In this document: piece after piece, positions 961-19,578 of the stretch
Numbering within the stretch: the first letter of the stretch is position 1
Layout: every line of letters begins with the position of its first letter
Virus record (IMG/VR): IMGVR_UViG_2671181054_000001
Location: 1 to 20,122 of that record
Direction: 5' to 3' (one strand)
Source: a virus
Taxonomy: Duplodnaviria; Heunggongvirae; Uroviricota; Caudoviricetes
Length of the DNA: 20,122 bases
The notes under the pieces: model-generated
Told to the model about the DNA's origin: nothing
Databases searched by the model: none
The model's input: only the letters and a program-made list of their open reading frames with translations
Position numbers and translations under genes: made by a program

Positions 961-1246
961 CTATCTGCACTTGATGCGCAAATAACAACCTCCAAAAGAA
1001 AAATAGCAAAAGCAGACCGTGTCACATAAAGACGTGCAGTTACTTTCTTTTCTATTCCTTTCATAACGGACGGCTTTAAAAGAAGATTTATACGATCTGC
1101 CGAGGATTTTTCTCTGTACTCACTGATTCATATTCTCCTCTTTGTTTGGTATAAAAACCGAACTCTTTCTCCAGTCGTTTTTCTTGTTCGGTAAGTCTAA
1201 TAACAAGCTAACCGCAGGTTGGATTTACTGGCCTCATTAATGCCAA

Positions 1247-1792
1247 CTACACCACCACGCGCTCTTTCATCCAGCCATACACGAACGATTCATTAGCCTC
1301 ACGTTTTTCTGCCAGTTCAAGGTAGCGATCTCCCTGCGTACAGTTTAGCGCTGTCAGAATCACCAACTCACCATCCCTGCCACGTTTTGACAAATAGGCG
1401 CGTAACGCATTAATGGTACGTGGGCCGATACAACCATCTGCATCAATGTCCGGATACAACTCTCCTTTCTGGTTAAATACATTAAGCCAGCGCTGAAGCA
1501 TTCTGGATGCCACTGACGGCCCCATGTTTACGCCGGTATCACACAATTCAGCAGCGATCTCCGGAGACAGGCTCGCAACCTTGTGAAAACGTGGCCCGTA
1601 CCAGTAGTCCGCTTCAAGAATTTCGAGGGCCTGCCCACGCGTCAGGTCACGAATATCCCCCTGATAACCGTGTGCACGGGCAACTTTTCCAGTAATGCCC
1701 CATTTAGTCGGACCACCTTTATCATCAGGGTGGTTGACGTAGCCGCCCTCTTTGCCAAGAACAGCATCAAAAATTTCATCTTTCGACTTCAT
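1247..1792 (-). CDS. Endolysin, glycoside hydrolase family 108 N-terminal domain with C-terminal peptidoglycan-binding domain
   Basis: Start taken at internal Met (MKSKDEIF) preceded by AAGG and abutting the upstream gene stop (TGAgATG). Motif EGGYVNHPDDKGGPTKWGIT is characteristic of GH108 lysozymes. No N-terminal hydrophobic segment, so not a SAR endolysin. Confidence 0.8.
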   Translation of the reverse strand: MKSKDEIFDAVLGKEGGYVNHPDDKGGPTKWGITGKVARAHGYQGDIRDLTRGQALEILEADYWYGPRFHKVASLSPEIAAELCDTGVNMGPSVASRMLQRWLNVFNQKGELYPDIDADGCIGPRTINALRAYLSKRGRDGELVILTALNCTQGDRYLELAEKREANESFVYGWMKERVVV

Positions 1793-1793
1793 C

Positions 1794-2072
1794 TCAGCGC
1801 CTTCGTAATACAAAGATTTTTGAAACGTTCCCACGAGCACGAACCACCAGCACGCAGAACAGCAGGTTAAAAAACACTTCCAGCCAGCCCGTTGCTAACG
1901 GGCGACCACACAGATAGCTGAGGGGCGCAAAGGCATACAGCAGCATCAGCAACCAGGCCAGCCATGACATCAGCGGTTTATGTCTGGAATCACGACGACG
2001 ATAAAAAAAGAGCGTCAGCACGATAACCGTGCATAACGCCACATTCAGCAATCCGGGAAGGTTACTTAACAT
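1794..2072 (-). CDS. Small membrane protein of lysis cassette (holin/antiholin-like), about 92 aa
   Basis: Two to three hydrophobic helices (LLNVALCTVIVLTLFF, LAWLLMLLYAFAPL, VFFNLLFCVLVV); overlaps upstream holin by 11 nt and abuts endolysin start. Confidence 0.5.
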   Translation of the reverse strand: MLSNLPGLLNVALCTVIVLTLFFYRRRDSRHKPLMSWLAWLLMLLYAFAPLSYLCGRPLATGWLEVFFNLLFCVLVVRARGNVSKIFVLRRR

Positions 2073-2454
2073 TGCCGCCTCCTCCACCCCGCAGGCGGGA
2101 GAACAGGCCGGACACCAGCGATGCAATATCCTGCTGGTGGATGAACGAGAGAATCTTCACCGACACCACCGCCACCAGCACCGCACACAGAGCATCCGCC
2201 GATGTACCGTCATAACCTGTTTTTGATGCAATCCAGGCTGACAGCACATGCGCACCCAGCACGCCAACGATAAACGACACCAGAAAATGCGCTGCCACAC
2301 GCCAGGCAGATAGTGCCTGCGGCATTGTGGCCACAAACAGCGCCCCGGCAAATGCGCCAAACACAATCCCGAAATCCGTTCCGGTAAACAGCCCGAATAC
2401 CGTCGCCCCGCCGAGCGCCGCAGCCGTGCCGGAACCGGATAAGGGTTCAGACAT
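2062..2454 (-). CDS. Phage holin-like multi-TM membrane protein, about 130 aa
   Basis: Start at MSEPLSG with GGAG 7 nt upstream; Gly/Ala-rich hydrophobic helices; first gene of lysis cassette immediately after a terminator. Confidence 0.6.
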   Translation of the reverse strand: MSEPLSGSGTAAALGGATVFGLFTGTDFGIVFGAFAGALFVATMPQALSAWRVAAHFLVSFIVGVLGAHVLSAWIASKTGYDGTSADALCAVLVAVVSVKILSFIHQQDIASLVSGLFSRLRGGGGGNVK

Positions 2455-2471
2455 ACTTTTTCTCCTGTAAA

Positions 2472-2496
2472 TAAAAAAGGGCCACTGTCGGCCCGT
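2472..2496 (-). terminator. Rho-independent terminator (minus strand) immediately upstream of holin RBS
   Basis: GGGCC-actgtc-GGCCC stem followed on the minus strand by TTTTTTAT. Confidence 0.4.
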
Positions 2497-2582
2497 AAAA
2501 AAACAACACCCCGTCAAAGGCACCCGCAGATACCTTTTGTGTGGTGTTATCTGATGTGATGTGCGCCGGACGTGGCGCGGAT

Positions 2583-2608
2583 ATAAAAAAGGCCCGCCGC
2601 AGCGAGCC
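2583..2608 (-). terminator. Rho-independent terminator (minus strand) just after AraC-family gene stop
   Basis: Imperfect 6-7 bp GC stem (ggctcgc/gcgggcc on minus strand, one G-U) followed by TTTTTTATAT. Confidence 0.4.
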
Positions 2609-2633
2609 TGTTTTCAATGAGTGCAAAATTCAA

Positions 2634-3377
2634 TTATTCTTGAGTAACACTTAAACTCATCTCATTGAATGCAGCCATCCTGTAACCTGCCGGTGTAACA
2701 CCAAAATAACTCCTGAATACGCTGATAAAATAAGATGTAAAATTATAGCCACACTGAGCAGCGATTCTGTTGATGGCGCAACGAGATTGATTCAACAGCA
2801 TTGCTGCCATTCTCATTCTCTCTGTAAGCAACAACTCACTGAAACAGGTGCCTTCTTCTTTCAGTCTTTTTTTTAACAAACTTTCACTGATACATAACCG
2901 CGAAGACACATCTCTCAGAGTCCAGTTTGCTGCAATGTCCGTACGAAACAATGCACTAAGCCTGTCACTAATATTGCCAATACACGCGGTCAGAAACGAC
3001 GAAAACATTTTCTCTGATGAGAAAAACGCCAGACACGAAAAGGAAAGCATTTCCGCTAAATTGTCCGTATGAATCTTTTCCTCACAAAGATAATCAATCA
3101 GGATGCCCATCAATTCTGCCTTGGGAAAACTCACGCAAAGATATCGTGGTATTTGCCGGACTAAAACTACATCCTGTTTTTCGTCTCCACACAACAGGTA
3201 ACGGATAATTGTCGATTCACTGAGACTTATTCGCCGAAAACATTCCGAAAAGGGCAATAACGATCCAGCTCCCCCCCTGACAAGAAGTGCACTACCACTT
3301 TCAAGAGAGAGCTCTTTTCCTTCAAAGAGCACAACAAACGGGGAATGAACAAAAACAACAGAACAGGCTTCATTCAT
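2634..3377 (-). CDS. AraC-family transcriptional regulator, AppY/EnvY-like (about 248 aa)
   Basis: C-terminal double HTH typical of AraC family (WTLRDVSSRLCISESLLKKRLKEEGTCFSELL...CGYNFTSYFISVFRSYFGVTPAGY). Start chosen at MNEACSVVF (AppY-like N-terminus as recalled) because the longer frame would run through the upstream terminator. Confidence 0.75.
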   Translation of the reverse strand: MNEACSVVFVHSPFVVLFEGKELSLESGSALLVRGGAGSLLPFSECFRRISLSESTIIRYLLCGDEKQDVVLVRQIPRYLCVSFPKAELMGILIDYLCEEKIHTDNLAEMLSFSCLAFFSSEKMFSSFLTACIGNISDRLSALFRTDIAANWTLRDVSSRLCISESLLKKRLKEEGTCFSELLLTERMRMAAMLLNQSRCAINRIAAQCGYNFTSYFISVFRSYFGVTPAGYRMAAFNEMSLSVTQE

Positions 3378-3495
3378 ATCAATTGCCCTGACATTACTGG
3401 TCACAAGATAAGTATATATCGATTTACAAAAATACAAGCCGAAAGACCAGTATTCGCAACCACCAGCACGTTTTATGTTCTCTGCCGTTTTTCGG

Positions 3496-3523
3496 ACATA
3501 AAAAACCCGCTCAATGGCGGGTT
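3496..3523 (-). terminator. Rho-independent terminator (minus strand) 85 nt downstream of Q stop; tR'-like
   Basis: Minus-strand RNA AACCCGC-CAUUGA-GCGGGUU followed by UUUAUG; 7-bp stem. Confidence 0.55.
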
Positions 3524-3606
3524 GTATCAAAGTTCATGCGCTTGGTTCACCTCGCGATACAGCTTTGCGAAGCTTAGCAAAATTGAAGCGGTTTATGCGT
3601 AAAAAA

Positions 3607-4149
3607 TCAAGCCGTTTTTTGAGCGAATGATTCTCGCATAGGAATGTATAGCGCATACTCAGCAACGGCCAACCAATTAGCAATTCGCTTTTCGCATGTG
3701 CTAAAACACCACTCTGGGTGTGCATCATTTAGCAATTCAGCCATTTTGCGTTTGGTCATCCCCCGCCCCTCATACCGTTGACGAAGGACGCTAATCAATC
3801 CTGGATGCTCTGCCAGCACCTCACTTATGACCCGATCAATACATAACGCCTCTGCATCAGTACAATGCGCCAGCCAGCTCTTTTGCTTACCGTTAATCAT
3901 ATCCCGCAAAAAAGCCTCAAGTTCAGACTTGTTCAGACCTGCTTTTTTCATCCTCCGGAGCGCCTCGTTAATTGCCGTTTTTGTCAGCTTTTTAGAGGCC
4001 AACAACTGGTTGAACATATTCCCCGTCTTACCGCCGCCAATATACGACCAGCGCCCCCACATGCGCAGTTTTCCCTGAATCCAGACACTTTCCAGCGTGG
4101 TGAGACGAAGGTGTTCCCCGCTTTTGCCTATATTTGTTGGGTAAATCAT
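3607..4149 (-). CDS. Q: Late-gene antitermination protein Q-like (about 180 aa)
   Basis: Position immediately upstream of terminator and lysis cassette; start at MIYPTNIG with GGAGAAAGGAAGG upstream and ATGA overlap with the preceding gene. Family assignment is from position and general resemblance, not verified. Confidence 0.55.
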   Translation of the reverse strand: MIYPTNIGKSGEHLRLTTLESVWIQGKLRMWGRWSYIGGGKTGNMFNQLLASKKLTKTAINEALRRMKKAGLNKSELEAFLRDMINGKQKSWLAHCTDAEALCIDRVISEVLAEHPGLISVLRQRYEGRGMTKRKMAELLNDAHPEWCFSTCEKRIANWLAVAEYALYIPMRESFAQKTA

Positions 4150-4436
4150 AAATAACCTTCCTTTCTCCAGATTTCTTGCGTGCGAAAAACACCTTCTGCA
4201 TGCATCAGGCGTAATTCTTCTTTGGTGTAATCGCTTGTTTTTACCCGCCAGTCGATTAGATCGTGGCATGAGCTACAGGCTATCGCCGCCTGCATATCGT
4301 GTGGTTTTGTCGCTGTTCCGCACGTCCCCGCCAGCCTGTAATGCGCCAGCACAGAGGTTTCGGGATTGTGATTGCAGTAGCCAGGGATTCTGATCTGGCA
4401 CATCTGGCCTTTAGCCGCTTTACGTAAATTCACCAT
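4146..4436 (-). CDS. DUF1364-family nin-region protein (YbcO-like), Cys-rich putative metal-binding nuclease
   Basis: 96 aa; resembles DLP12 YbcO (LRKAA.G..CQ.RIPG.CN.NPETSVLAH.RL.G.CGT.TKP...A.IACS.CH) as recalled; TAATG overlap with upstream gene. Confidence 0.6.
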   Translation of the reverse strand: MVNLRKAAKGQMCQIRIPGYCNHNPETSVLAHYRLAGTCGTATKPHDMQAAIACSSCHDLIDWRVKTSDYTKEELRLMHAEGVFRTQEIWRKEGYL

Positions 4437-5035
4437 TACGCAAACTCCAGTAGTTGTGCGGCCACATTTACAACTTCCTCCTGAGAGGAGAATTTACGGA
4501 ACAGAATCCAGTTCCACAGCATATTCAGTACAGATTTATAAACCTGCTGAAACTCGACTTCGTCCATATTCGCAAACGCGATGGATTTCGCCCGACGCCC
4601 ACGGCTACCATCAGGATAAAAATGCTCTGTGTAAAATCCGGCCTGAATGGTTACCCACTCGCGGAAAGCCTCAAACGACTTTAGCAATGCCGTATCCCGG
4701 GTTCTGCGTGTCGCAACGGTATTCAGATATTGCTCTGCGGCACCACTCAGGGCTGGAGTATGTTCCCGACCTACTGATTCGCACAGGTAATCAACGAAGC
4801 CTGATACCAGTTCTCGTTCTCGAGGCGTGATCGCCCCACCGATCGGAGTCCAGTAATCGAATCCCAGTTGCAGGAGTTTGAAAAAACGCTTGTGGAATGC
4901 ATAGTTACGCACACGCTTAAAGTCTGCGTGTATCCACTCGCCTATTTTGATTTGATGCAGAAAATCGCAACTCTCCGGCGTCGCCGGGAGAAGTAAACCA
5001 GAAGAAGTTTGTTTGACCAGTTGTATATGCGCCAT
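4436..5035 (-). CDS. Phage nin-region protein, possibly DUF1367 family (199 aa)
   Basis: ORF with GGAGA SD 6 nt upstream of ATG; syntenic with YbcO-like gene. DUF assignment is from memory and uncertain. Confidence 0.5.
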   Translation of the reverse strand: MAHIQLVKQTSSGLLLPATPESCDFLHQIKIGEWIHADFKRVRNYAFHKRFFKLLQLGFDYWTPIGGAITPRERELVSGFVDYLCESVGREHTPALSGAAEQYLNTVATRRTRDTALLKSFEAFREWVTIQAGFYTEHFYPDGSRGRRAKSIAFANMDEVEFQQVYKSVLNMLWNWILFRKFSSQEEVVNVAAQLLEFA

Positions 5036-5106
5036 CGTAGTTCTCCGCTGGCGCAGTAGAATGGGTGTTCAGCCCGTTGTGCAGTATACCAGAATTAATA
5101 CCAATA

Positions 5107-5358
5107 CTAACAGGATGCTCTGACTCGCAATTCATCCAGCAGTTTATCATTTCCCATAATGTCACTTAACCTCATCGGTAAAAAAATTGCCTTTCGCCCA
5201 TTACGATACATCATTGATTTTTGGTTTTCAGGGAAGTAATCCATTTCGACTATAACTGACAGGTCATCACGACGTATGACTGCGTATTTGCTACTAAATA
5301 GTTTCTTTATTTTTTCCACGATGCCTCCAAGTTTATAAGTACAAGAGGTTATATCCAC
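5107..5358 (-). CDS. Hypothetical small protein (70-83 aa; start uncertain, possible GTG start with GGAGG)
   Basis: ORF in moderately AT-rich DNA at edge of the island; no family recognised; ATG at 5358 lacks an SD, internal GTG is preceded by GGAGG. Confidence 0.35.
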   Translation of the reverse strand: MDITSCTYKLGGIVEKIKKLFSSKYAVIRRDDLSVIVEMDYFPENQKSMMYRNGRKAIFLPMRLSDIMGNDKLLDELRVRASC

Positions 5359-6207
5359 ATAGAGACAAAAATATTAATCTTAAAAATATTTATTTCACGC
5401 CGTATATTTGTTTGTTTTATGCGCAGGCACAATGACTTTTATTTATTGTTATGCATATAATCAAATAAGTGATTGTTTTTTGCTCTTCAGATTCAGCAGG
5501 CAAAATGCATAAGGGCTGAAAGTGCTCGCATATAATACCTAATTTACTATCACTATATTCTAAGCACTTACCAGGTGATTAGGAACGGAACCCAGTACCG
5601 TGCGAATTTTAATTATGTGCTGGGACCAAACGGTCTGAAATGTCTTCATTGGTGACGATGATTACTCTTACTTTTTGATTTTAATATTCCGGCAATAATT
5701 TTAATAAAAATCTGTTTTAACTCTGCATTTTGCTGATTCTCCGAAGAAACTATCCATCTCTACGAGGAGATCAAATGTCGTTTCAAATCAGTATGTTGAG
5801 TATAAAAATCATGCCATAAATAGAAAACTAATTCGTCTGTATAGCAGTAATATTTCTGAAAATTAGTAGGATACTGTGGTAAAGAAATTCATTTCCAAGT
5901 AATTGGTAAACGCATTTGATTTGATTTTTTGTATGGGCTGTACTGGCTAAATAACATCCGATACTTGCCAGCACTAGCGATTGCTATTGATGAGAACAAT
6001 AGTGGCATCCGGCAAAGCATTTTGTAGGGGGGGTATCAAGCGGTGCTAACGCATTGCGGTAAAAATTCTGTCACACTTGGCGAGCAGGCATAGAGATGAT
6101 CTCATTGAATTGGTTGCAATCACAAAACACTATGCCTGCCTTTTCTATTCGCCCATTGCTGGGGAGTCCACAGCACTACTGCAGCTTTTTAGTACGATGA
6201 ACAGCTA

Positions 6208-8190
6208 TTAAGTAATTTCAGAGGTATCTATCACTTTCTCAGGAGTTGTAGATAACAATTCTTTCATACGCTGATCTTCGGGAGCACGAGAAGACAGGTG
6301 TTCTAAAAACTCACGCCATTGACGCTTTGCATCAGACAGAAGGTCATCCCAAGTTAATGTATACATTTCTTGTTCTCTCAATGTTTTCAGTTTCATATTT
6401 AACGTTGCATTTCTCTTTAAAAAATCATCAGCAACTAGATAACCGGAAACTCGCTTGAATGGACTTCCTGTTGCAGAGTCTAAATAAACTCTGAAAGTAT
6501 TAACATACTCCTCAAAGCGATTGATGTGATCTTTATCTATTTTCAGCCCTGGCCTCATGAATTCAAGTACAAGCAAATGTTCACCACTTGAAAGAACTAA
6601 GTCAACCCTTCCTTTAAAGCTTGGATCGTGTTCAATGTCTGATTCTTTTGCTGCTTCTCTAGCGATATGCTGGACATTTTTCTCAATAGCATAAGTCTCC
6701 CATTTTGGAGCTATCAGCCAAGGATTCTTCGCAATATAGTCTCGAACAGCATTTTCTAATTCTTTAGTGCGTATTCTAGTCTCAAGACCACTTATAGTAT
6801 CAAGCTTAGCTTTAACTGATTCTGCTGTGTGTAAAGCCTGAATTGTATTTGCTTCGATCAATATCTCAAGCAATTTCGTTTCATCCATATCAGGAACGGA
6901 AGCAACGCTTCTTATAAGCTCTTTTAGACGCCCTCCCTCCCATGCAGTGAGGATAGAGTTGCCTATATGCCTAAATTGCTCTGCACCGATTTGTTGGATT
7001 GATGCAATTCGTTTCAAAGCCATTATAACCGTTTTTTTCTCTACACCTAGTTTATCTAGCCTACTTCTGAAATCATCAATTTTACTTTCAATCAGTTTGG
7101 TTTTTTCATCTGCCCGCCGATCTTTCCAGATTTTTAATAATTCGCGAACACGTTTCTGTCCCCACTCTTCTAATTTGGCAAGGTGGTGACTACTCCAATT
7201 CAATCTTTGTCGTTCAGTAGAAATCACATCATCATTAAACTCATCCAAATAATCAGCAATTACAGCCCCTGTCATATATTCAGGACCATTTTGACTTGGC
7301 AACCCTCCAGTCAAGTTAAACATAAACGGCCTTTGTGCTAATTTTTTGTGAGCGTAAATCGAGATACCTTGCAACTCATCATCCTTGATTGTTTCTTTTA
7401 AGAAAAACACTCTCCATTTTATCTCATAACCATCAACGATTTCTTTTCCATACCCCAAACTGTCAATCTCCGTAAGAGAATCAGGTTTTTCATCTACAGT
7501 ATAATCTTTTGGAAAACTATATTCTGCAGTGGCAAGAAAATTTTCGACTGGCATGGGGGTATTATTAATACGAACTAAAAATTCATCGCCGCCAGAATTG
7601 ATCGCAAACCTTCTCGCCATAGATGTAGCAAAAGAAGACTCATTTAACAATCTATTTATTTTCAATGACTTAAGTGTTACTGTTGTTCCATGATTTTCTT
7701 TTTCTAATTCTGAAGGGCCTGTGCGGAAGGTCACATCAATAGCCATACTTTCAGTTTTAACGTAGTCATCTGACGATCTAATCTTATTTATATCCAAAGT
7801 AAAACTAGTTTTTTCACCTGTTTCTTGGCTAGTAGTACAAATTTCTATAATCTCAGCAATACCAAAACCAGCAAACTTTCCGATACCTTTTCTTCCCATT
7901 AAGTCTCGATTGAATAATTTCGACTTCGCTACAGGATTATCTTTCCTTTTATCAAAACCAACCGTAAGAAATTTCTTTTGACATTCTTCAAATGTCATTC
8001 CAATACCATTGTCTTTTATAACAATAGTTCTATTTTCATGCGTGGGTAGTGTAATATTAACTTCGGTTGCATCCGCGTCCCAAGCATTAGAAACCATTTC
8101 AGCTATTGCTGCTGTTGGACTTTGATACATTTGAATACCTAAATGATCAATTATCCTACCATGAAAATTTAGAAATAGTTTATTATCCAT
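6208..8190 (-). CDS. GHKL (Bergerat-fold) ATPase-domain protein, 660 aa, MORC/MutL-like N-terminus with uncharacterised C-terminal region; candidate restriction/defence effector
   Basis: N-terminal motifs AIAEMVSNAWDADATEV (N-box, E-x3-N-A-x-D), IKDNGIGMT (D-x-G-x-G), GRKGIGKFAGFG (G-rich lid). Start ATG has GAGG 6 nt upstream and overlaps the MTase stop by 8 nt. Confidence 0.85.
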   Translation of the reverse strand: MDNKLFLNFHGRIIDHLGIQMYQSPTAAIAEMVSNAWDADATEVNITLPTHENRTIVIKDNGIGMTFEECQKKFLTVGFDKRKDNPVAKSKLFNRDLMGRKGIGKFAGFGIAEIIEICTTSQETGEKTSFTLDINKIRSSDDYVKTESMAIDVTFRTGPSELEKENHGTTVTLKSLKINRLLNESSFATSMARRFAINSGGDEFLVRINNTPMPVENFLATAEYSFPKDYTVDEKPDSLTEIDSLGYGKEIVDGYEIKWRVFFLKETIKDDELQGISIYAHKKLAQRPFMFNLTGGLPSQNGPEYMTGAVIADYLDEFNDDVISTERQRLNWSSHHLAKLEEWGQKRVRELLKIWKDRRADEKTKLIESKIDDFRSRLDKLGVEKKTVIMALKRIASIQQIGAEQFRHIGNSILTAWEGGRLKELIRSVASVPDMDETKLLEILIEANTIQALHTAESVKAKLDTISGLETRIRTKELENAVRDYIAKNPWLIAPKWETYAIEKNVQHIAREAAKESDIEHDPSFKGRVDLVLSSGEHLLVLEFMRPGLKIDKDHINRFEEYVNTFRVYLDSATGSPFKRVSGYLVADDFLKRNATLNMKLKTLREQEMYTLTWDDLLSDAKRQWREFLEHLSSRAPEDQRMKELLSTTPEKVIDTSEIT

Positions 8191-9232
8191 AATCCGCCTC
8201 GTTTTTAGTTATATGTTCTTTGATAAGTTCAGCATGACGCTTAATGAATTCAGGGGGCAATGCATTCCCTATCATCAAAGCAGCCTTGTCTTTACCAAAT
8301 TGAATAGGAAAATAGTAATCACTCGGAAAAGTTTGTAATAATGCAGCCTCTCGAAGAGTTATTGCTCTATCTTGTTCAGGATGTAAAAAACGACCTTTTG
8401 AAGGATTAGTACATCCACTCGTAATAGTTGGAGCTACATCATCCCACCTCATACGACCGTAAACATCGCGAAAACCATTTGGATATCGTTTATGACATGG
8501 CAGCCAATACTCGTAAGGAAGTTGAGAGCGGCTTCCCCCATCCTTAGGAATAAGACTTATAATTTTTTTAACCTTCTCAGTTCTTCTTTCTAATATATTG
8601 TGCAGCGGATCATTGCTATTTTCAGGTCGAGCCAAATGGCCTATTGCATCGCGCACAGTTATTAAATTACTATTTTTTTGAGCACGAGTAAGCTCTCCGT
8701 ATCGCGAAGCAAGTAGTACCATGCGCTTACGTCTTTGTGGCACACCAAATTTACTAGCATCTTCAATTAAAACTGAATTATCATCGATATGATAACCCAA
8801 TTTCTTAAGCTCCGAAGTAAACATGTTTATTCGTTCGTCAAATGCCAAAGCTGGTACATTTTCAACCATTACAACTTTTGGAAAAAAGACTTTAACAAAA
8901 TCTAAAAAATTAAAAATAAGTTCATTTCTCTCATCAAAGACAGCTACTGTTTTATTTTTTGTTCTTAACGAAGAAAATCCTTGACATGGTGGACAACCTG
9001 CCAACAAATCCAGTTCACCTTGCTGAATTTTTAATTGTTTCATTAATTCATCTGGTGATATATTTTTTATATCCCCATTTATTAAGTTAACATCCGGATG
9101 GTTGATTCTATAGGTTTCAGATACAATAGCTTCTTTTTCGATTGCTGATATGACATCAAAGCCAGCCATTTTTAGACCAACTGTCAAACCACCAGCGCCA
9201 CAAAAAAGATCAATTGCTTTCATTTTATGCAT
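8183..9232 (-). CDS. DNA (cytosine-5)-methyltransferase, Dcm-type (349 aa)
   Basis: Canonical m5C MTase motifs: I DLFCGAGG, IV GCPPCQGFS, VI MVENVPAL, VIII QRRKR, X GNALPP. Start could be M1 (9232) or M4 (9223). Confidence 0.9.
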   Translation of the reverse strand: MHKMKAIDLFCGAGGLTVGLKMAGFDVISAIEKEAIVSETYRINHPDVNLINGDIKNISPDELMKQLKIQQGELDLLAGCPPCQGFSSLRTKNKTVAVFDERNELIFNFLDFVKVFFPKVVMVENVPALAFDERINMFTSELKKLGYHIDDNSVLIEDASKFGVPQRRKRMVLLASRYGELTRAQKNSNLITVRDAIGHLARPENSNDPLHNILERRTEKVKKIISLIPKDGGSRSQLPYEYWLPCHKRYPNGFRDVYGRMRWDDVAPTITSGCTNPSKGRFLHPEQDRAITLREAALLQTFPSDYYFPIQFGKDKAALMIGNALPPEFIKRHAELIKEHITKNEADYG

Positions 9233-9268
9233 TCCATTCCATCATGTATACTATGAATCTAATCGAGA

Positions 9269-9297
9269 ATCATATGAAATTGATAGGCTTTTTACAA
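9269..9297 (-). promoter_or_regulatory. Candidate sigma70 promoter for MTase-GHKL operon
   Basis: Minus strand TTGTAA - 17 bp - TATGAT, about 35 nt upstream of the MTase start codon. Confidence 0.3.
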
Positions 9298-9625
9298 TCT
9301 TTATCATCTATTTTTATTGTCTTATGTAATTTTCTTGGTTATTGGTGGAATGTAATCTCATCTGATATCCTATGTCCTAATAGATAGCAATTCTGTATGA
9401 GCTTTTATTGCCCTCATCAGACGCTTCCTTTATGAAGTTGTTCCGAGCAATGCAGCATCGCATTTATCACTTCTTTTATGTGGCTTATGTGTCACGGCGT
9501 TGTTGCCATCAAGGCCAGCGAACATTCCGTGCCTGTCAAACGCCGTGCAAAGCTCGTTAAACGCCCACGTCCGAACTTCGGCAAGGAAGGCATTGGCGCG
9601 GTCAACTCCTGGTAGCCAATCCTGC

Positions 9626-10048
9626 TCACTGCGCCGCCCCCTGAAAATGCCCCTGATAGAATGCCAGCACACGCTGCATAACTTCGCTCTTCCGGCACTC
9701 GCGACAGATTATGTTCATACGCCTGTCATAGCGGCGTATTTCTCCGTCTGGTAATGACCAGATAAGGTCAGGATCAACCACAACCGTTTTTTTCACCTTT
9801 GCCCTGGATAGTTTTTTGCGGGCGTTTTTCCAGTCCTTACGAGCCTGTTCAGAGGGAAATAACCCATAGCCAGAGTTGTATACATCGCCACTGGCAACCA
9901 ACTCTCTGGCAAGAATGCTCATCAGATATCTTGTCGCACCTGTCTTGGCCTCCAGTTGCCTTAACGTCTCGCGCCCACTCTGGCGTACCAGCTCAACAAC
10001 CTGCTCCTTAATTTTTTCACGCTCTTCCTGTGTAAAAACTTTTGCCAT
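9626..10048 (-). CDS. Hypothetical phage protein, possible winged-helix DNA-binding protein (140 aa)
   Basis: Start at MAKVFTQEE with GGAGG 6 nt upstream; C-terminal CRECRK motif; no confident family. Confidence 0.5.
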   Translation of the reverse strand: MAKVFTQEEREKIKEQVVELVRQSGRETLRQLEAKTGATRYLMSILARELVASGDVYNSGYGLFPSEQARKDWKNARKKLSRAKVKKTVVVDPDLIWSLPDGEIRRYDRRMNIICRECRKSEVMQRVLAFYQGHFQGAAQ

Positions 10049-10063
10049 AAGCGCCTCCGGCAA

Positions 10064-10825
10064 TCACTTTTCCGACACAATACGACAGGAGGAGTCGACA
10101 ATCTGTCGAACAATATCCCGGTACTTGTTCAGCTCCCGCAGCGCGGCGCAGACACGCTCCCACTTCTGGACATGATTTTTCGCCCGGCGCAGCTCACGGT
10201 TTGCCATGTGCAGCGATGGTAAAATCATGTCATCCGCCCGCGTTTCGGTAAACGATGGCAGCGACTGCACAATGTCCGCCACAGTTTCTGTTTTAATATC
10301 TTCCTGTGTTGCATCTTTCTGTACCGGCAACGCAACACCTGCTGGCTGAGGAAAGGCTTTAAAATCAGTTTCCGTTACCGATGCAGCTTTCGGCTCTGCT
10401 GGTAAATTATTGCCCGGTATGCAGTAACGAAATTTACCGTTCTGATTTACGCGAATCAGGCGTCCTTTGCTGATTGCCATTGCCAGCGTTGAAGCAAGTT
10501 TGCGGGATGTGGTACCGAACAGCGTAGCTAGTTCATCCGCCGTTTGTGGTCCGCGTTGTTCAATCGTCGCGGTTAAATCGCACTCTGAGATTTTCGCTAC
10601 TGTTGCCGTGGTGGTTTCTTCCGGCAGTTCTGCCTGCATTGGCTGTTCCTGCTGAACGTTGTTATCAGCCACACGCCAGGTGTACGCGCTTTTATCAACG
10701 AAACCAGCTTTTTTCAGTTCCCATAGTTCGTTCAGCACTTCTTCACGACTGATATCAAGTCGCGCAGCAAGTTCTATGGATGTGGCTTTTCCCATTGCTT
10801 TCAGTGCGTCAAAAACAGTCTCCAT
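10064..10825 (-). CDS. Phage protein with N-terminal winged-helix-like domain (DUF1627-like, YdaW-like), about 254 aa
   Basis: Start at METVFDALK with GGGAGGA 8 nt upstream; position after DnaC-like gene as in Rac ydaV-ydaW. Family from memory. Confidence 0.5.
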
Positions 10826-10847
10826 TAAAATTTCCTCCCGATAAAAA

Positions 10848-11594
10848 TTACTTCGCAGTTCCTGGCTGGACGACATTCGGACGCCAGCTCTCCCAGTTAA
10901 AATTCACCCATCGCCCGCCGTTCATGGTCATGCGATCCATAATCCGCTCGCCGAGCAATGTTTTCATGGCCTCATAGTTCAGGTTTGTCAGCATCCCCAC
11001 GCTGCGCATCGACGCTGTCCGGCGATCAACAATCTGGTGCAGTACCACCTGCTCGTTTTTTGTCTCGCGCTGAATGCCAATTTCATCAAGAACCAGCAGA
11101 TCCACTTCGCACAGTTCCCGCAAAAATTTTTCGCCTGATTGCCCGTCGTCATAGCTGGCGTGTAGAGCACTCATGACATCAGCCACAGTAACCACAATCA
11201 CTGTCTGGCCATCTTTCAGCAGACGATTCCCGATAGCCGCCGCCAGATGGTTTTTTCCGGTACCAGGTTTTCCGCTGAACGCAAAATTTGTACACCCGGT
11301 CATCAGTTCATCAGCGATAGATTTCGCCTGGCTCAACGCGTATCGCTGACCGTCGTTCTGCACCTGGTAATTCGCAAACGAGCATTTACGGTGCAACGGC
11401 TGGATGCCTGAGCGATTCAGAATTTTTTCCACCCGCAACTGGCGATTCAGGCGGTTGATCTCCTCGCTACGTTTCTGGCCTTCAGCAAGTTGCCACTCGC
11501 GCCACTCCGCTACCGTTCTGAATGGGGCGGTTACATGTGGCGGGGTCAGTCGGCGGATGCGTTCCAGAACGCCGCCTGTCGCAATATTTTTCAT
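10848..11594 (-). CDS. DnaC/IstB-like AAA+ helicase loader (replication protein, YdaV-like)
   Basis: Walker [16 protein letters not shown] and Walker [10 protein letters not shown]; 248 aa. Confidence 0.85.
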
Positions 11595-11600
11595 GGTTCG

Positions 11601-12389
11601 TTACCCCCTGAAGCCTGGCGGGATCGCACTGTCCGGCAACGAGACGGTGTTAACCTGTCTGAGCAACGTCTCAGGCCTAACACCTTTCGGCGCGAACAAG
11701 CCCTGGTATTCATTGGCGATGCTATGTCGAATCACCTGCTCAGGGGTAAAACCCTGCTGGCGGAATTTTTCCAGTTCCCGTATCGCCCCGTTAGCGCCCT
11801 GCTCCGTTCGAATCGGTTTTCGCAATGCCTGCCTGAACCGGACCCACTCATGCCAGAGTGTTTCCGGCAACCAATCGGGCAACTCAATAGCCTCCGGCTC
11901 GAATTTTTTAGATGCTCGTTTTTGGCGAGGGGGATTTAGGGGGAGATCAGTATTTATATCTTCCTCTTCCTCTTCCTCTGGTAACGCTTTTTGATCCGTT
12001 TGTGTAACGCTGGCAGCGTTACCTTTTCGTTTCAGTTTGCGTATTTTTGTAACCCTCTCGTTTGTAATCGCCCGTTTTTTAGAGCTTTTTCCGTTATGAC
12101 GTTCAAAGTTAGGTAGAGAAAGCCCACCGTTATTTTCGACCAGCCATCCAACCTGAATTAACGCATCAGCAAAACCAGCCATAAAAGTGATGCGATCTAT
12201 TGCACTTTTTGTAACGCCGCGAGCGTTACACTCTGCGTTACCGTCTATCATTTGTTGATCCGCCCATGCCCAGAAGCGAATGACTTTCCCTAATGCGGCA
12301 TCTGGATCAATATTCAGAATCTCAGCAAGCCTGAATATTTCCGGCTTATCCGGCGTAATAACCTCGAGCTTTATCCAGTTTGAAGCCAT
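11601..12389 (-). CDS. Replication initiation-module protein (YdaU/DUF1376-like), about 262 aa, with poly-Glu linker
   Basis: Start at MASNWIKLEV with GGTGA 7 nt upstream; directly precedes DnaC-like loader; contains internal palindromic repeats. Confidence 0.55.
   Translation of the reverse strand: MASNWIKLEVITPDKPEIFRLAEILNIDPDAALGKVIRFWAWADQQMIDGNAECNARGVTKSAIDRITFMAGFADALIQVGWLVENNGGLSLPNFERHNGKSSKKRAITNERVTKIRKLKRKGNAASVTQTDQKALPEEEEEEDINTDLPLNPPRQKRASKKFEPEAIELPDWLPETLWHEWVRFRQALRKPIRTEQGANGAIRELEKFRQQGFTPEQVIRHSIANEYQGLFAPKGVRPETLLRQVNTVSLPDSAIPPGFRG
12004..12022. repeat. 19-bp palindrome GTAACGC-N5-GCGTTAC, copy 1 (inside replication gene)
   Basis: gtaacgc tggca gcgttac; exact 7-bp arms. 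Confidence 0.8.
12211..12229. repeat. 19-bp palindrome GTAACGC-N5-GCGTTAC, copy 2 (inside replication gene), followed by an extra GCGTTAC at 12235-12241
   Basis: gtaacgc cgcga gcgttac; exact 7-bp arms. Confidence 0.8.
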
Positions 12390-12403
12390 ATTGTTTTCAC
12401 CTT

Positions 12404-12422
12404 GTAACGCTGTAAGCGTTAC
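12404..12422. repeat. 19-bp palindrome GTAACGC-N5-GCGTTAC, copy 3 (intergenic, overlapping RBS region of replication gene)
   Basis: gtaacgc tgtaa gcgttac; exact 7-bp arms. Confidence 0.8.
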
Positions 12423-12467
12423 ATTTAACTGATACCGAACAAAACAGTCCGGCACGATTAATTTCAA

Positions 12468-12890
12468 TCAATGCACTACGACAGAATCGCCGGGCGACCC
12501 ACCGCCGCTGAAATATGCTTTACGGTAAACGGCCTGGACTGCATCATCATGCGCATCAATTGCCGTACTCAACGCTTCCTGCGCCGCCAGTAATGCACGG
12601 CGTTCCAGGGTATCGAAGATGCAGAGTCGGTGACGCAGCTCGCGCGGAAGAATTGCCAGAACCGCAGGGATCAGTTTCTGAATTTTTTCCCTTTGCGCTT
12701 TCGTTTCACCTTTCAACCAACGGTGATAGATATTCTGCTGATTGTTCCAGTCCTTGCCTGGTACCAGGGGCAATTCGCCGCCCCCCTGGCGCAGATATTC
12801 TTCAGTAATTGCGTTAGCAACCCACGCCTGCCCTTTTTCGGCTGCTAGGGCTAACAACACTGATTCGATGTGCTCATGCCTGATTTTCAT
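12468..12890 (-). CDS. YdaT-like (CII-like) early regulatory protein, 140 aa
   Basis: Second gene of the rightward early operon, ATGA-coupled to the Cro-like gene; size matches Rac YdaT as recalled. Confidence 0.55.
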   Translation of the reverse strand: MKIRHEHIESVLLALAAEKGQAWVANAITEEYLRQGGGELPLVPGKDWNNQQNIYHRWLKGETKAQREKIQKLIPAVLAILPRELRHRLCIFDTLERRALLAAQEALSTAIDAHDDAVQAVYRKAYFSGGGSPGDSVVVH

Positions 12891-13129
12891 GAATCAACCG
12901 CTCCTATGCTGTTTTCGCTATGCTTACCGTCTGGGGGGAATACATCGTCAAGTCCACAATGAGCACCAAGCCGATTAAGGGTGGAAACAATTTTTCTGCA
13001 CTCCTCTAGCCCAGGGGTACGAAAATTTGCTTCGTAATTTGCCAGTCGGCTTTGTATCCACCCTAGCTGAACAGCGAGTTGTCTTTGAGACAGACCAAGT
13101 TGTTTTCGATATGTTGAAATTTTGTTCAT
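12887..13129 (-). CDS. Cro/YdaS-like HTH (XRE-family) early regulator, 80 aa
   Basis: HTH LGLSQRQLAVQLGWIQSRLANYE; GGAGG 6 nt upstream of ATG; divergent from repressor gene. Confidence 0.7.
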   Translation of the reverse strand: MNKISTYRKQLGLSQRQLAVQLGWIQSRLANYEANFRTPGLEECRKIVSTLNRLGAHCGLDDVFPPDGKHSENSIGAVDS

Positions 13130-13225: not shown

Positions 13226-13645
13226 ATGGAAAAAGAAAACGAAAAAATTGCCGCTAGTAGGCTCAATGACAAAATTGCAATGCGTCTTAAAGAGCGCAGG
13301 CAGAAGCTTGGTTTATCTCAAGGAAAACTTGCTGAAATCTGCGGATGGACGCAATCGCGTATAGGTAACTATGAGGCGGGCAGCAGAAATGTTGGAGTGC
13401 ATGATGCTGTCGTCCTGGGAAAGGCGCTGGGCATATCTCCTCCTGAGCTCCTCTTTGGGGAAAAAGACTCTTCTGAATTGTGGTTAAATGAATCCCAACG
13501 AAAACTTCTTGAGTTGTTTAACCAGCTACCGGGCTCAGAACAACAACGAATGATTGAGCTATTTGAAGTCCGGCTAAAAGAAATCGACGAGTATGTAGAA
13601 AAATATTTGAGGGGCAGGCTTAAAGATACCCCCCCACCGGAGTAA
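13226..13645 (+). CDS. CI/RacR-like XRE-family HTH repressor without peptidase S24 domain (139 aa)
   Basis: HTH LGLSQGKLAEICGWTQSRIGNYEAG; AAGGA RBS; divergent from cro-like gene; followed by a strong terminator. Confidence 0.75.
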   Translation: MEKENEKIAASRLNDKIAMRLKERRQKLGLSQGKLAEICGWTQSRIGNYEAGSRNVGVHDAVVLGKALGISPPELLFGEKDSSELWLNESQRKLLELFNQLPGSEQQRMIELFEVRLKEIDEYVEKYLRGRLKDTPPPE

Positions 13646-18221: not shown

Positions 18222-18491
18222 ATGAGCGAACAGTACCTGATAACGCTCGATGAGTGGAAGCCAAAACGGTTCAGTCTCCCAATAACAAACACTACCCTGG
18301 TGAAATACGGAAAACTAGGATACATCGTTCCAAGACCACAAAAAATTCGTGGGCGTTGGCTGATAGATCGCCGAGCAGTATTTGTTGGACCTGGTGAAAC
18401 AGGAATTGCGCCGGAAATTCATACTGGCGATGATGATGCACTGAAGGAGATTTTAACTCATGTCACCGAGGCCACGAAAAAACAGCACTGA
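18222..18491 (+). CDS. xis: Excisionase-like protein (Xis), about 89 aa
   Basis: Small basic ORF immediately upstream of and overlapping integrase by 32 nt; GGAG 8 nt upstream of ATG. Call is positional. Confidence 0.5.
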   Translation: MSEQYLITLDEWKPKRFSLPITNTTLVKYGKLGYIVPRPQKIRGRWLIDRRAVFVGPGETGIAPEIHTGDDDALKEILTHVTEATKKQH

Positions 18492-19578
18492 CGTAGCCGG
18501 ACTTTACGAAAAATTTGATCGCAGAACTGGCAGAGTTTACTACCAGTATAAAAACCCTGTGACTGGAAAATTTCACGGGCTCGGAACAGACAAAGGTAAG
18601 GCAGAAAAAATCGCTTCCACAGCCAATCAGCGAATAGCTGCAGCAGAGGCTGAATATTTCATGCGCAAAATTGATGAAAGTCCGTCAGCAACAAAGCGTC
18701 GGGGTATCAGATTAAAGGCATGGGTTGATCGATATCTGAAAATACAGGACACGCGACTGAAAAATGGAGATATTGCAGCTACAACTCACAAAGAAAAAGC
18801 CCGAATGGCTGCATACCTGGTTTCCCGTCTGGGAAACCACCCATTGAAAGAACTGGAAGTAAGAGACTTTGCATTAATACTGGATGAGTGGCTGGATAAA
18901 GACATGGTCAGCACAGCGAGAGTAAATCGTGGATTATGGGTTGATATTTATAAAGAAGCACAGCATGCAGGGGAAGTTCCTCCTGGATGGAATCCTCCGG
19001 AGGCTACCCGTAAACCGATCCCTAAAGTAACTAGAGCCAGGCTCACCCTGGAAGACTGGCAAAAAATTTACAACGCAACGCCTGAAAAACACTTTATCCG
19101 TAACGCAATGCTTCTTGCGATTGTTACTGGTCAGCGCCGTGATGACATTTGCCACATGCGTTTTTCAGATGTGTGGAACGAACACTTGCATATCACCCAG
19201 GGAAAAACCGGAATGCGTCTGGCGTTACCGCTTACACTACGCTGTGATGCCATTGGGATAACGTTAAAAGAAGTTATTGATGGGTGCCGAGACAGAATAT
19301 TAAGTCCATATCTAATCCATAGTCGGCACCAGAAACAACCAAAGCCGATGAGTAAAGACAACCTGAGCGACTACTTTGCCAAAGCACGGGATCTGGCTGG
19401 GATAACTCCACCAGCAGGAAAAACTCCGCCAACATTTCATGAACAACGCTCCCTGTCAGAACGATTGTACCGCGCGCAGGGTATTGATACAAAAACATTA
19501 CTGGGACATAAAGTCCAGGCAACCACCGATCGTTATAACGATACTCGTGGTCAGGAATGGGTTAAATTGGTTGTTTGA
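18460..19578 (+). CDS. int: Lambda-family tyrosine integrase, 372 aa
   Basis: N-terminal arm-binding region resembles lambda Int (RDPRTGKEFGLG-like: YKNPVTGKFHGLG); C-terminal catalytic H-x-x-R (HEQRSL) and Tyr motif (TTDRYNDTRGQEW, cf. lambda ASQYRDDRGREW). Confidence 0.9.
   Translation: MSPRPRKNSTDVAGLYEKFDRRTGRVYYQYKNPVTGKFHGLGTDKGKAEKIASTANQRIAAAEAEYFMRKIDESPSATKRRGIRLKAWVDRYLKIQDTRLKNGDIAATTHKEKARMAAYLVSRLGNHPLKELEVRDFALILDEWLDKDMVSTARVNRGLWVDIYKEAQHAGEVPPGWNPPEATRKPIPKVTRARLTLEDWQKIYNATPEKHFIRNAMLLAIVTGQRRDDICHMRFSDVWNEHLHITQGKTGMRLALPLTLRCDAIGITLKEVIDGCRDRILSPYLIHSRHQKQPKPMSKDNLSDYFAKARDLAGITPPAGKTPPTFHEQRSLSERLYRAQGIDTKTLLGHKVQATTDRYNDTRGQEWVKLVV

Follow-up and report, generated by a model that had tools for sequence, protein, structure and literature searches.

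A candidate Type II-like restriction-modification cassette carried as a moron in a Rac-like prophage of Escherichia coli

The stretch of DNA analysed here (20,122 nucleotides (nt), IMG/VR virus record IMGVR_UViG_2671181054_000001, positions 1 to 20,122; hereafter the window) is a Rac-like lambdoid prophage of Escherichia coli. The best-matching genome has ompN, uspF and trkG as flanking genes, and its prophage contains ydaV, ydaT, kilR, sieB and recE. The early-right genes are located on the minus strand, where an AT-rich island separates the replication genes from those of the nin/Q type. Its acquired part (5504-9433, 3934 nt) carries two genes on the minus strand, a C5-cytosine DNA methyltransferase and a candidate restriction subunit that combines a GHKL ATPase with a nuclease domain. 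We interpret this cassette as a Type II-like restriction-modification (R-M) moron, acting in defence and possibly in addiction, and place the probability of this reading at about three in four. On this reading it is ordinary phage cargo and represents a type already known, the HgiDII-like R-M system of paraMORC3 type, here borne by a prophage as a moron.

A GC content of 0.363 (36.3 %) was calculated for positions 5100-9430, against 0.485 in the left flank (1201-5035) and 0.508 in the right flank (9434-12900); the acquired cassette has 0.365 in surroundings of about 0.50. Sliding windows of 400 nt gave 0.315-0.425 in each window from 5001 to 9400 and about 0.47-0.52 in the adjoining windows, with a return to about 0.51 from 9401. 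At third codon positions the nuclease gene had a GC content of 0.274 and the methylase gene one of 0.229, compared to 0.48-0.61 for eight flanking phage genes. The preliminary description of this DNA had estimated by eye that a compositionally distinct island interrupts a tightly packed series of phage genes. The computed values confirmed the difference in composition, and the neighbouring genes indeed overlap or abut (4146-4436/4436-5035, 9626-10063/10064-10876, 11601-12467/12468-12890).

The methyltransferase gene (8183-9232, minus strand) encodes 349 amino acids (aa), or 346 from the RefSeq start at 9223. The protein matches Pfam DNA_methylase PF00145 (E 1.3e-55, residues 4-338), TIGR00675 dcm (E 2e-45) and the PADLOC model MTase_II (E 2e-81), and all catalytic motifs are present in the translation: FCGAGG (I), PPCQGFS (IV), ENV (VI), QRRKR (VIII) and GNALPP (X). 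The methylase stop and the nuclease start overlap by 8 nt (ATGGATAA), and a GAGG is positioned 6 nt 5' of the nuclease ATG. The target-recognition region (residues 179-295) is conserved like the catalytic core among the methylase partners compared (L006-L013), with 49-58 % identity where the nucleases themselves have only 49-56 %. This is expected of cognate pairs with related specificity and may point to a recognition sequence that is common to the clade or varies little within it. The relatives in the PDB align with the catalytic core only and do not allow an assignment of the methylase specificity. HgiDII recognizes GTCGAC; this sequence occurs once in the window, which is too weak to interpret. 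Upstream of the methylase, the region 9233-9305 (minus strand) moves with the gene pair and shows 81 % nt homology with modules from Pantoea and Klebsiella to 9304/9305. Within these 72 conserved nt lies a sigma-70-like site, TTGTAA-17 nt-TATGAT (9297->9269). In a lysogen the early operon around the pair is repressed, so that transcription of the pair probably starts at a putative promoter of its own within this region. A convincing terminator was not detected downstream of the pair.

The candidate restriction subunit (6208-8190, minus strand) has 660 aa and consists of an N-terminal GHKL (Bergerat) ATPase, a Hsp90/MORC-like middle domain, long helices at about residues 335-474 and a C-terminal PD-(D/E)xK domain at about residues 476-640. 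The ATPase domain was recognized by HATPase_c_3 (E 1e-23). With Bergerat motifs I-IV, the catalytic Glu and the Mg-binding Asn, the protein is placed by its motifs in the GHKL ATPase superfamily; E31, N35, D38, D60, G64, K101, G102, G104 and K105 are invariant in 62 sequences. The PADLOC REase_II models were matched with E 1.2e-52. On the NCBIfam model NF050001, the BbrUII/HgiDII family of restriction enzymes, residues 13-634 align to profile positions 9-647 of 659 (E 2.5e-89), and all 62 relatives match this model at E <=1e-20 (best E 1e-144). The protein also aligns end to end with phrog_6203 (E 1e-159), a family of unknown function, and the RefSeq product name is just 'ATP-binding protein'. 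An AlphaFold model with 37 homologues had a pLDDT of 79.6. The full-length model matched TRAP1, Hsp90 and MORC2/3 in Foldseek at E 1e-13 to 1e-11 over about 400 columns, comprising the ATPase and the middle (transducer) domain. This search was dominated by the Hsp90/MORC part and uninformative on the C-terminus, hence a second model was made of residues 471-660. Structure-match values were 8.4 for NucS, 8.2 for N.BspD6I, 7.7 for the FokI cleavage domain, 6.8 for E. coli SduA and 6.8 / 6.6 for B. cereus SduA, and Kpn2I, NucC and Cap4 ranked below these.

The pair was found in several other mobile contexts. A prophage on a Pantoea agglomerans megaplasmid and a prophage of Klebsiella pneumoniae share 81 % nt identity with the window over 6242-9305, i.e., both genes and 72 nt upstream. 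In Klebsiella the pair follows a lambda-P-like gene, in Pantoea it lies between a Q-like gene and the holins, and in the P2-like Yersinia phage P37 it is located at the genome end after a gene-A homologue (69 % nt identity). In six of seven other contexts the pair is poorer in GC than the DNA around it. Four further loci encode nucleases of 49-56 % identity, each with a PF00145 methylase directly upstream in the same orientation and one of them with a Vsr gene downstream. A more distant member has the order methylase-nuclease-Vsr, and at another distant locus Vsr is present and no methylase was identified. In all eight pairs of the window's clade that were examined, the window included, the methylase is directly upstream of the nuclease, overlapping or abutting. 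By these comparisons the methylase-nuclease linkage is conserved across relatives. A metagenomic locus (L019/L020) has two divergently placed paralogues of the GHKL nuclease (L019 311-2218 and 3464-5383) together with Vsr; within the portion of this contig that was read, a methylase was not recognized.

The E. coli strain O177:H21 (L004, NZ_CP016546.1) is a natural double knock-out of the pair and the only carrier genome with a damaged methylase. Its methylase is frameshifted after about residue 53 (window position ~9070), and its nuclease is cut at residue 622 by the IS10-like ISVsa5 with a 9-bp duplication (window 6323-6331). Decay in this order is expected if the nuclease is toxic without the methylase. 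In the other carriers each gene is listed as one annotated coding sequence, as judged from the annotation only.

The ATPase-nuclease architecture raises the question whether the 660-aa protein is a Shedu type 1D GHKL nuclease, comparable to VcSduA of Vibrio cholerae, that senses infection while the methylase is independent or accessory. We regard this as improbable. The match to Pfam SduA_C is weak (E 0.11; 13 bits vs a threshold of 27), and PADLOC assigned REase_II and no Shedu model to the window. Moreover, Shedu is by definition a single gene, whereas here a methylase adjoins upstream in eight of eight pairs of the clade. The conservation of the methylase target-recognition region is as expected of a cognate partner, and the double inactivation in O177:H21 likewise fits a cognate pair.

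A second alternative arises from the nuclease active site. E479, D530, E543 and Y562 are conserved throughout the 62 relatives, but three other positions separate the window clade (n=12, 33-100 % identity) from a distant group comprising 48 of the 50 more distant members. At position 545 in motif III all 12 proteins of the window clade have Met (E-F-M-R-P), all 48 of the distant group the canonical Lys (E-x-K-R-P). Position 555 is His in 12/12 of the window clade and E or D in 40/48 distant proteins; position 558 is Arg in 12/12 and Gln in 36/48, the latter as in the RecB-like QxxxY. In the window DNA these sites correspond to 6556-6580 (codons 538-545) and 6517-6538 (codons 552-558). Ten relatives scored singly on NF050001 obtained 233-373 bits (best 372.8), all below the equivalog cut-off, and these scores place R.HgiDII and R.BbrUII in neither the Lys nor the Met clade. 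The loss of the motif III Lys, together with the uninformative RefSeq name, may be taken as indication of a dead nuclease; the working cargo would then be the methylase alone, as an orphan or anti-restriction enzyme with a role in protecting phage DNA or in changing host gene expression, and the ATPase would be a DNA-binding or regulatory partner. Orphan 5-methylcytosine (m5C) methylases are common on phages. We consider an inactive nuclease nonetheless unlikely: the substitution is clade-wide, in 12/12 proteins down to 33 % identity, is accompanied by invariant H555 and R558, and leaves E479, D530, E543 and Y562 untouched, the pattern of a rewired and selected site. The reading frame is of full length, with an identical protein in four other genomes that were translated, and some restriction enzymes of the PD-(D/E)xK type, e.g., BamHI and BglII, do without the Lys. 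In the alignment the exchange of Lys for Met with co-varying His555 and Arg558 looks like a coordinated rewiring, not decay.

The extent of the acquired DNA was set by alignment of the window to two related prophages with other cargo, L002 (an O157-like strain) and L003. The identity to both was 92.7-93.8 % from 4400 to 5503 and was regained at 9434/9439 at 83-87 %, which defined the junctions 5503/5504 and 9433/9434. The right junction coincides with the stop codon of a small conserved phage open reading frame (ORF) of the backbone (9430-9672, minus strand; phrog_27745, E 5e-12; GC 0.535). Of the island limits first proposed, 5100 and 9430, the right one was essentially exact, but the left edge of the acquired DNA had to be shifted to 5504, since the first 400 nt of the island are conserved in the related prophages. 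The island is therefore composite, with conserved AT-rich backbone at 5036-5503 (minus strand, GC 0.36, 92-94 % identity to many other prophages; a small ORF and its upstream region) and true cargo at 5504-9433. Direct or inverted repeats pairing 5504 with 9433 were not found. The junctions carry neither a target-site duplication, for which the preliminary description had suggested a check, nor terminal repeats. A transposon or a cassette bounded by insertion sequences (IS) was considered and rejected: there are no paired repeats, and the single decayed IS4-family end is internal.

Of 5426 complete E. coli genomes, 19 carry the cassette, in all cases on the chromosome, in single copy and with 99.5-99.9 % identity. 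The flanks were found in 4042 of these genomes. At the same slot L002 has a helix-turn-helix (HTH) gene, a hypothetical gene and hokD, and L003 has DUF551 fragments, small genes and hokD. A 600-nt query joining both flanks revealed no empty slot: in none of the 5426 genomes were the flanks within ~800 nt of each other. With no genome in which the flanks are joined and no repeats at the junctions, the slot seems never to be empty, always holding some cargo, and the acquisition looks like an exchange of lambdoid modules rather than a transposition. The nuclease protein is identical (WP_029402337.1) in the window and in L001, L015, L016 and L017, while the accessions of the flanking DUF1367, DUF1627 and DUF977 proteins differ; the cassette thus seems to be shared among diverged Rac-like backbones. 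These comparisons uphold the preliminary proposal that accessory DNA was recently acquired here, in a lambdoid hot-spot for morons located between replication and nin/Q genes; the island genes are missing from most related prophages. The proposal gave no identity for the cargo, which is here read as an R-M gene pair. Compared with its relatives the cassette has the features of a lambdoid moron: it is accessory, compositionally distinct and placed in a variable slot of a conserved backbone. That the segment is ancestral to the prophage lineage and was lost or replaced elsewhere, its AT-richness being regional, is very improbable: the adjoining backbone (5036-5503) is AT-rich as well, neither an empty site nor a target duplication marks an insertion, and the Klebsiella pair has a similar position after a P-like gene, but only 19 of ~4040 flank-bearing E. 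coli genomes carry the cassette, its copies share 99.5-99.9 % identity against 83-94 % in the flanks, the pair occupies other slots in Pantoea (Q-holin) and in the P2-like phage (after gene A), the module GC is below the flanks in six of seven other hosts, and an IS remnant lies at the edge.

This remnant (5613-6190, minus strand) is a decayed IS4-family fragment with the 5' end and an N-terminal transposase part, about 154 of 397 codons, interrupted by in-frame stops and a frameshift. It shares 68-77 % nt identity with IS4-family transposase genes on plasmids. In a tblastn search with the transposase of L005, aa 1-91 (48 %) and 125-154 (37 %) aligned to 6091->5667 with stops and a frame change. 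The nuclease stop codon is followed after about 20-35 nt by the IS end, and only about 40 % of the element is left. All 19 E. coli cassettes contain the fragment, and the gene pairs of Klebsiella and Pantoea lack it. It is probably a trace of the rearrangement by which the left boundary arose. Long non-coding stretches had been described for the island, and two stretches of 849 nt (5359-6207) and 197 nt (9233-9429) are indeed free of ORFs >=50 aa; judged by the IS4-family transposase homology with stops over 5613-6190, however, most of the longer one is a dead IS4-family fragment. The IS remnant is separated from the left junction by about 110 nt (5504-5612, no strand assigned) that are specific for the cassette, without homology to L002/L003 or to the Klebsiella and Pantoea modules and without an Rfam match of note. 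At the other end a cassette-specific AT-rich spacer of 128 nt (9306-9433, no strand assigned) is not present in L006/L008 or L002/L003; the GC content of 9233-9433 is 0.308.

On the replication side, the gene order is an HTH repressor-like gene (13226-13645, plus strand), a YdaT-like gene, a gene for 288 aa, a ydaV-like IstB/DnaC ATPase gene (10848-11594, minus strand), DUF1627, DUF977, the small ORF 9430-9672 and the island; an integrase gene is located at 18460-19578. Beyond the island follow a small ORF at 5107-5319, DUF1367, YbcO, a DUF1133/Q-like gene (3607-4269, minus strand), an AraC-family gene, holin and lysozyme. The small ORF (5107-5319/5358, minus strand) matches phrog_1813 of unknown function (E 7e-34) and is annotated as WP_071790254.1 in other genomes. 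In its form 5107-5358 it is AT-rich and adjoins the variable slot in many prophages, and plus-strand promoter-like sites at 5380-5461 are directed into the slot. Other parts of the window with low GC are 1-1200 (0.35-0.42) and 2600-3600 (0.41-0.43), the island being the deepest and longest. The first of these holds a DUF1398 ORF (1-411) and small plus-strand ORFs, opposite to the lysis genes. The AraC-family regulator gene (2634-3530, minus strand; 298 aa, PF12833/PF00165; GC ~0.41) is positioned between the Q-like gene and the holin gene (2062-2523) and resembles a second moron; in strain CH4797 the slot is occupied by tRNA-Gly and tRNA-Thr instead. ARAGORN detected no tRNA in the window, and Rfam at gathering thresholds no RNA family over the whole window, including hok/sok; at E<=1 over 5000-6300 only a chance-level match appeared (E 0.28).

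What the sequence comparisons show directly is the composition, the junctions, the rarity, the domain content, the conserved motifs and the linkage of the genes; enzymatic activity, a role for ATP, specificity, use of the promoter and an addiction effect are inferred. Taken as an R-M moron, the pair would function as follows. The methylase would be translated first and mark a specific site on host and prophage DNA. The translationally coupled nuclease subunit may dimerize via its GHKL heads on ATP binding, like MutL, Hsp90 and MORC, with the middle domain and the coiled arms clamping DNA. The ATP cycle would then license the C-terminal PD-(D/E)xK domains to cut sites that lack the methyl mark. 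In the lysogen, incoming phages and plasmids would be excluded, and loss of the prophage could be penalized post-segregationally, in a slot that usually holds the hokD toxin. Several observations weigh against this function. The nuclease scores 300.6 bits on NF050001 with an equivalog cut-off of 550, hence it is a relative and not an equivalog, and the specificity is not transferable. With Met545 in place of the catalytic Lys in 12/12 proteins of the clade, catalytic competence is not guaranteed. A controller (C) protein, another timing device or an N-terminal HTH on the methylase were not found. The promoter-like site upstream of the methylase matches 9 of 12 consensus positions only, and the scan gave fewer such sites than shuffled sequences. 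The double knock-out in O177:H21 is a single case.

A broader view is tentative: HgiDII-like 'Type II' enzymes, the window protein among them, may be ATP-gated nucleases of the Shedu/NucS type that receive the distinction of self and non-self from a coupled m5C methylase and bridge classical R-M systems to the single-gene Shedu. The rebuilt site of the window clade would then be active, with His555 and Arg558 taking over after the exchange of Lys for Met and QxxxY turned into RxxxY. The significance of the cassette is modest and would grow if an ATP-gated, Lys-less nuclease were in fact active. The Rac-like slot between replication and nin genes would gain a defence and possibly addiction module among its known cargo. 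R-M systems of this type are under-counted in prophage defence inventories, because their nuclease is an 'ATP-binding protein' in RefSeq and of 'unknown function' in PHROGs (phrog_6203). What the GHKL ATPase does in HgiDII-type enzymes has been asked since at least 2008 (PMC2441816), and an E. coli prophage copy together with a natural double knock-out strain offers a convenient model for it. In the aligned sequences, the clade-wide change from Lys to Met with co-varying His and Arg presents a concrete candidate case of active-site rewiring.

Among known systems, R.HgiDII was described as a GHKL domain followed by a C-terminal domain of unassigned fold (Orlowski and Bujnicki, PMC2441816). The window system resembles HgiDII/BbrUII (NF050001) in the end-to-end alignment of the nuclease, the N-terminal GHKL domain, the C5-cytosine methylase partner and the coupled order of M then R. 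It differs in that its protein is below the equivalog cut-off and forms a sister clade, so that the HgiDII recognition sequence may not be assumed. The distant relatives within NF050001 have E-x-K in motif III, whereas the window protein has E-x-M and its system is borne as a prophage moron. ParaMORC3 proteins, as described by Iyer, Abhiman and Aravind (2008, PMC2292703), combine GHKL, S5 and a nuclease of the restriction-endonuclease fold; they are prevalent in proteobacteria and belong to R-M operons that also encode cytosine methylases and Vsr. The window protein shares the GHKL domain, the S5-like middle part and the C-terminal restriction-endonuclease fold with an E-D-ExK-type motif, a likeness judged from the described architecture, and so agrees with the published accounts of both R.HgiDII and paraMORC3; in contrast to paraMORC3, its clade is without the Lys of ExK. 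With Shedu type 1D/VcSduA (PMC12137116; bioRxiv 10.1101/2023.08.10.552793) it has in common the domain order, the Hsp90/MORC-like middle domain, the NucS/EndoMS-like PD-(D/E)xK nuclease and the carriage on mobile elements and prophages. Shedu is, however, a single gene without the methylase pairing of the window protein, for which the SduA_C match is not significant and no PADLOC Shedu model gave a hit. As a moron, the cassette is comparable to the hokD morons of Rac/Qin-like prophages in its slot, orientation and AT-richness and in being accessory and variable, but where those carry a type I toxin-antitoxin system and small genes, it carries an R-M pair and an IS remnant, and it is found in only 19/5426 genomes.

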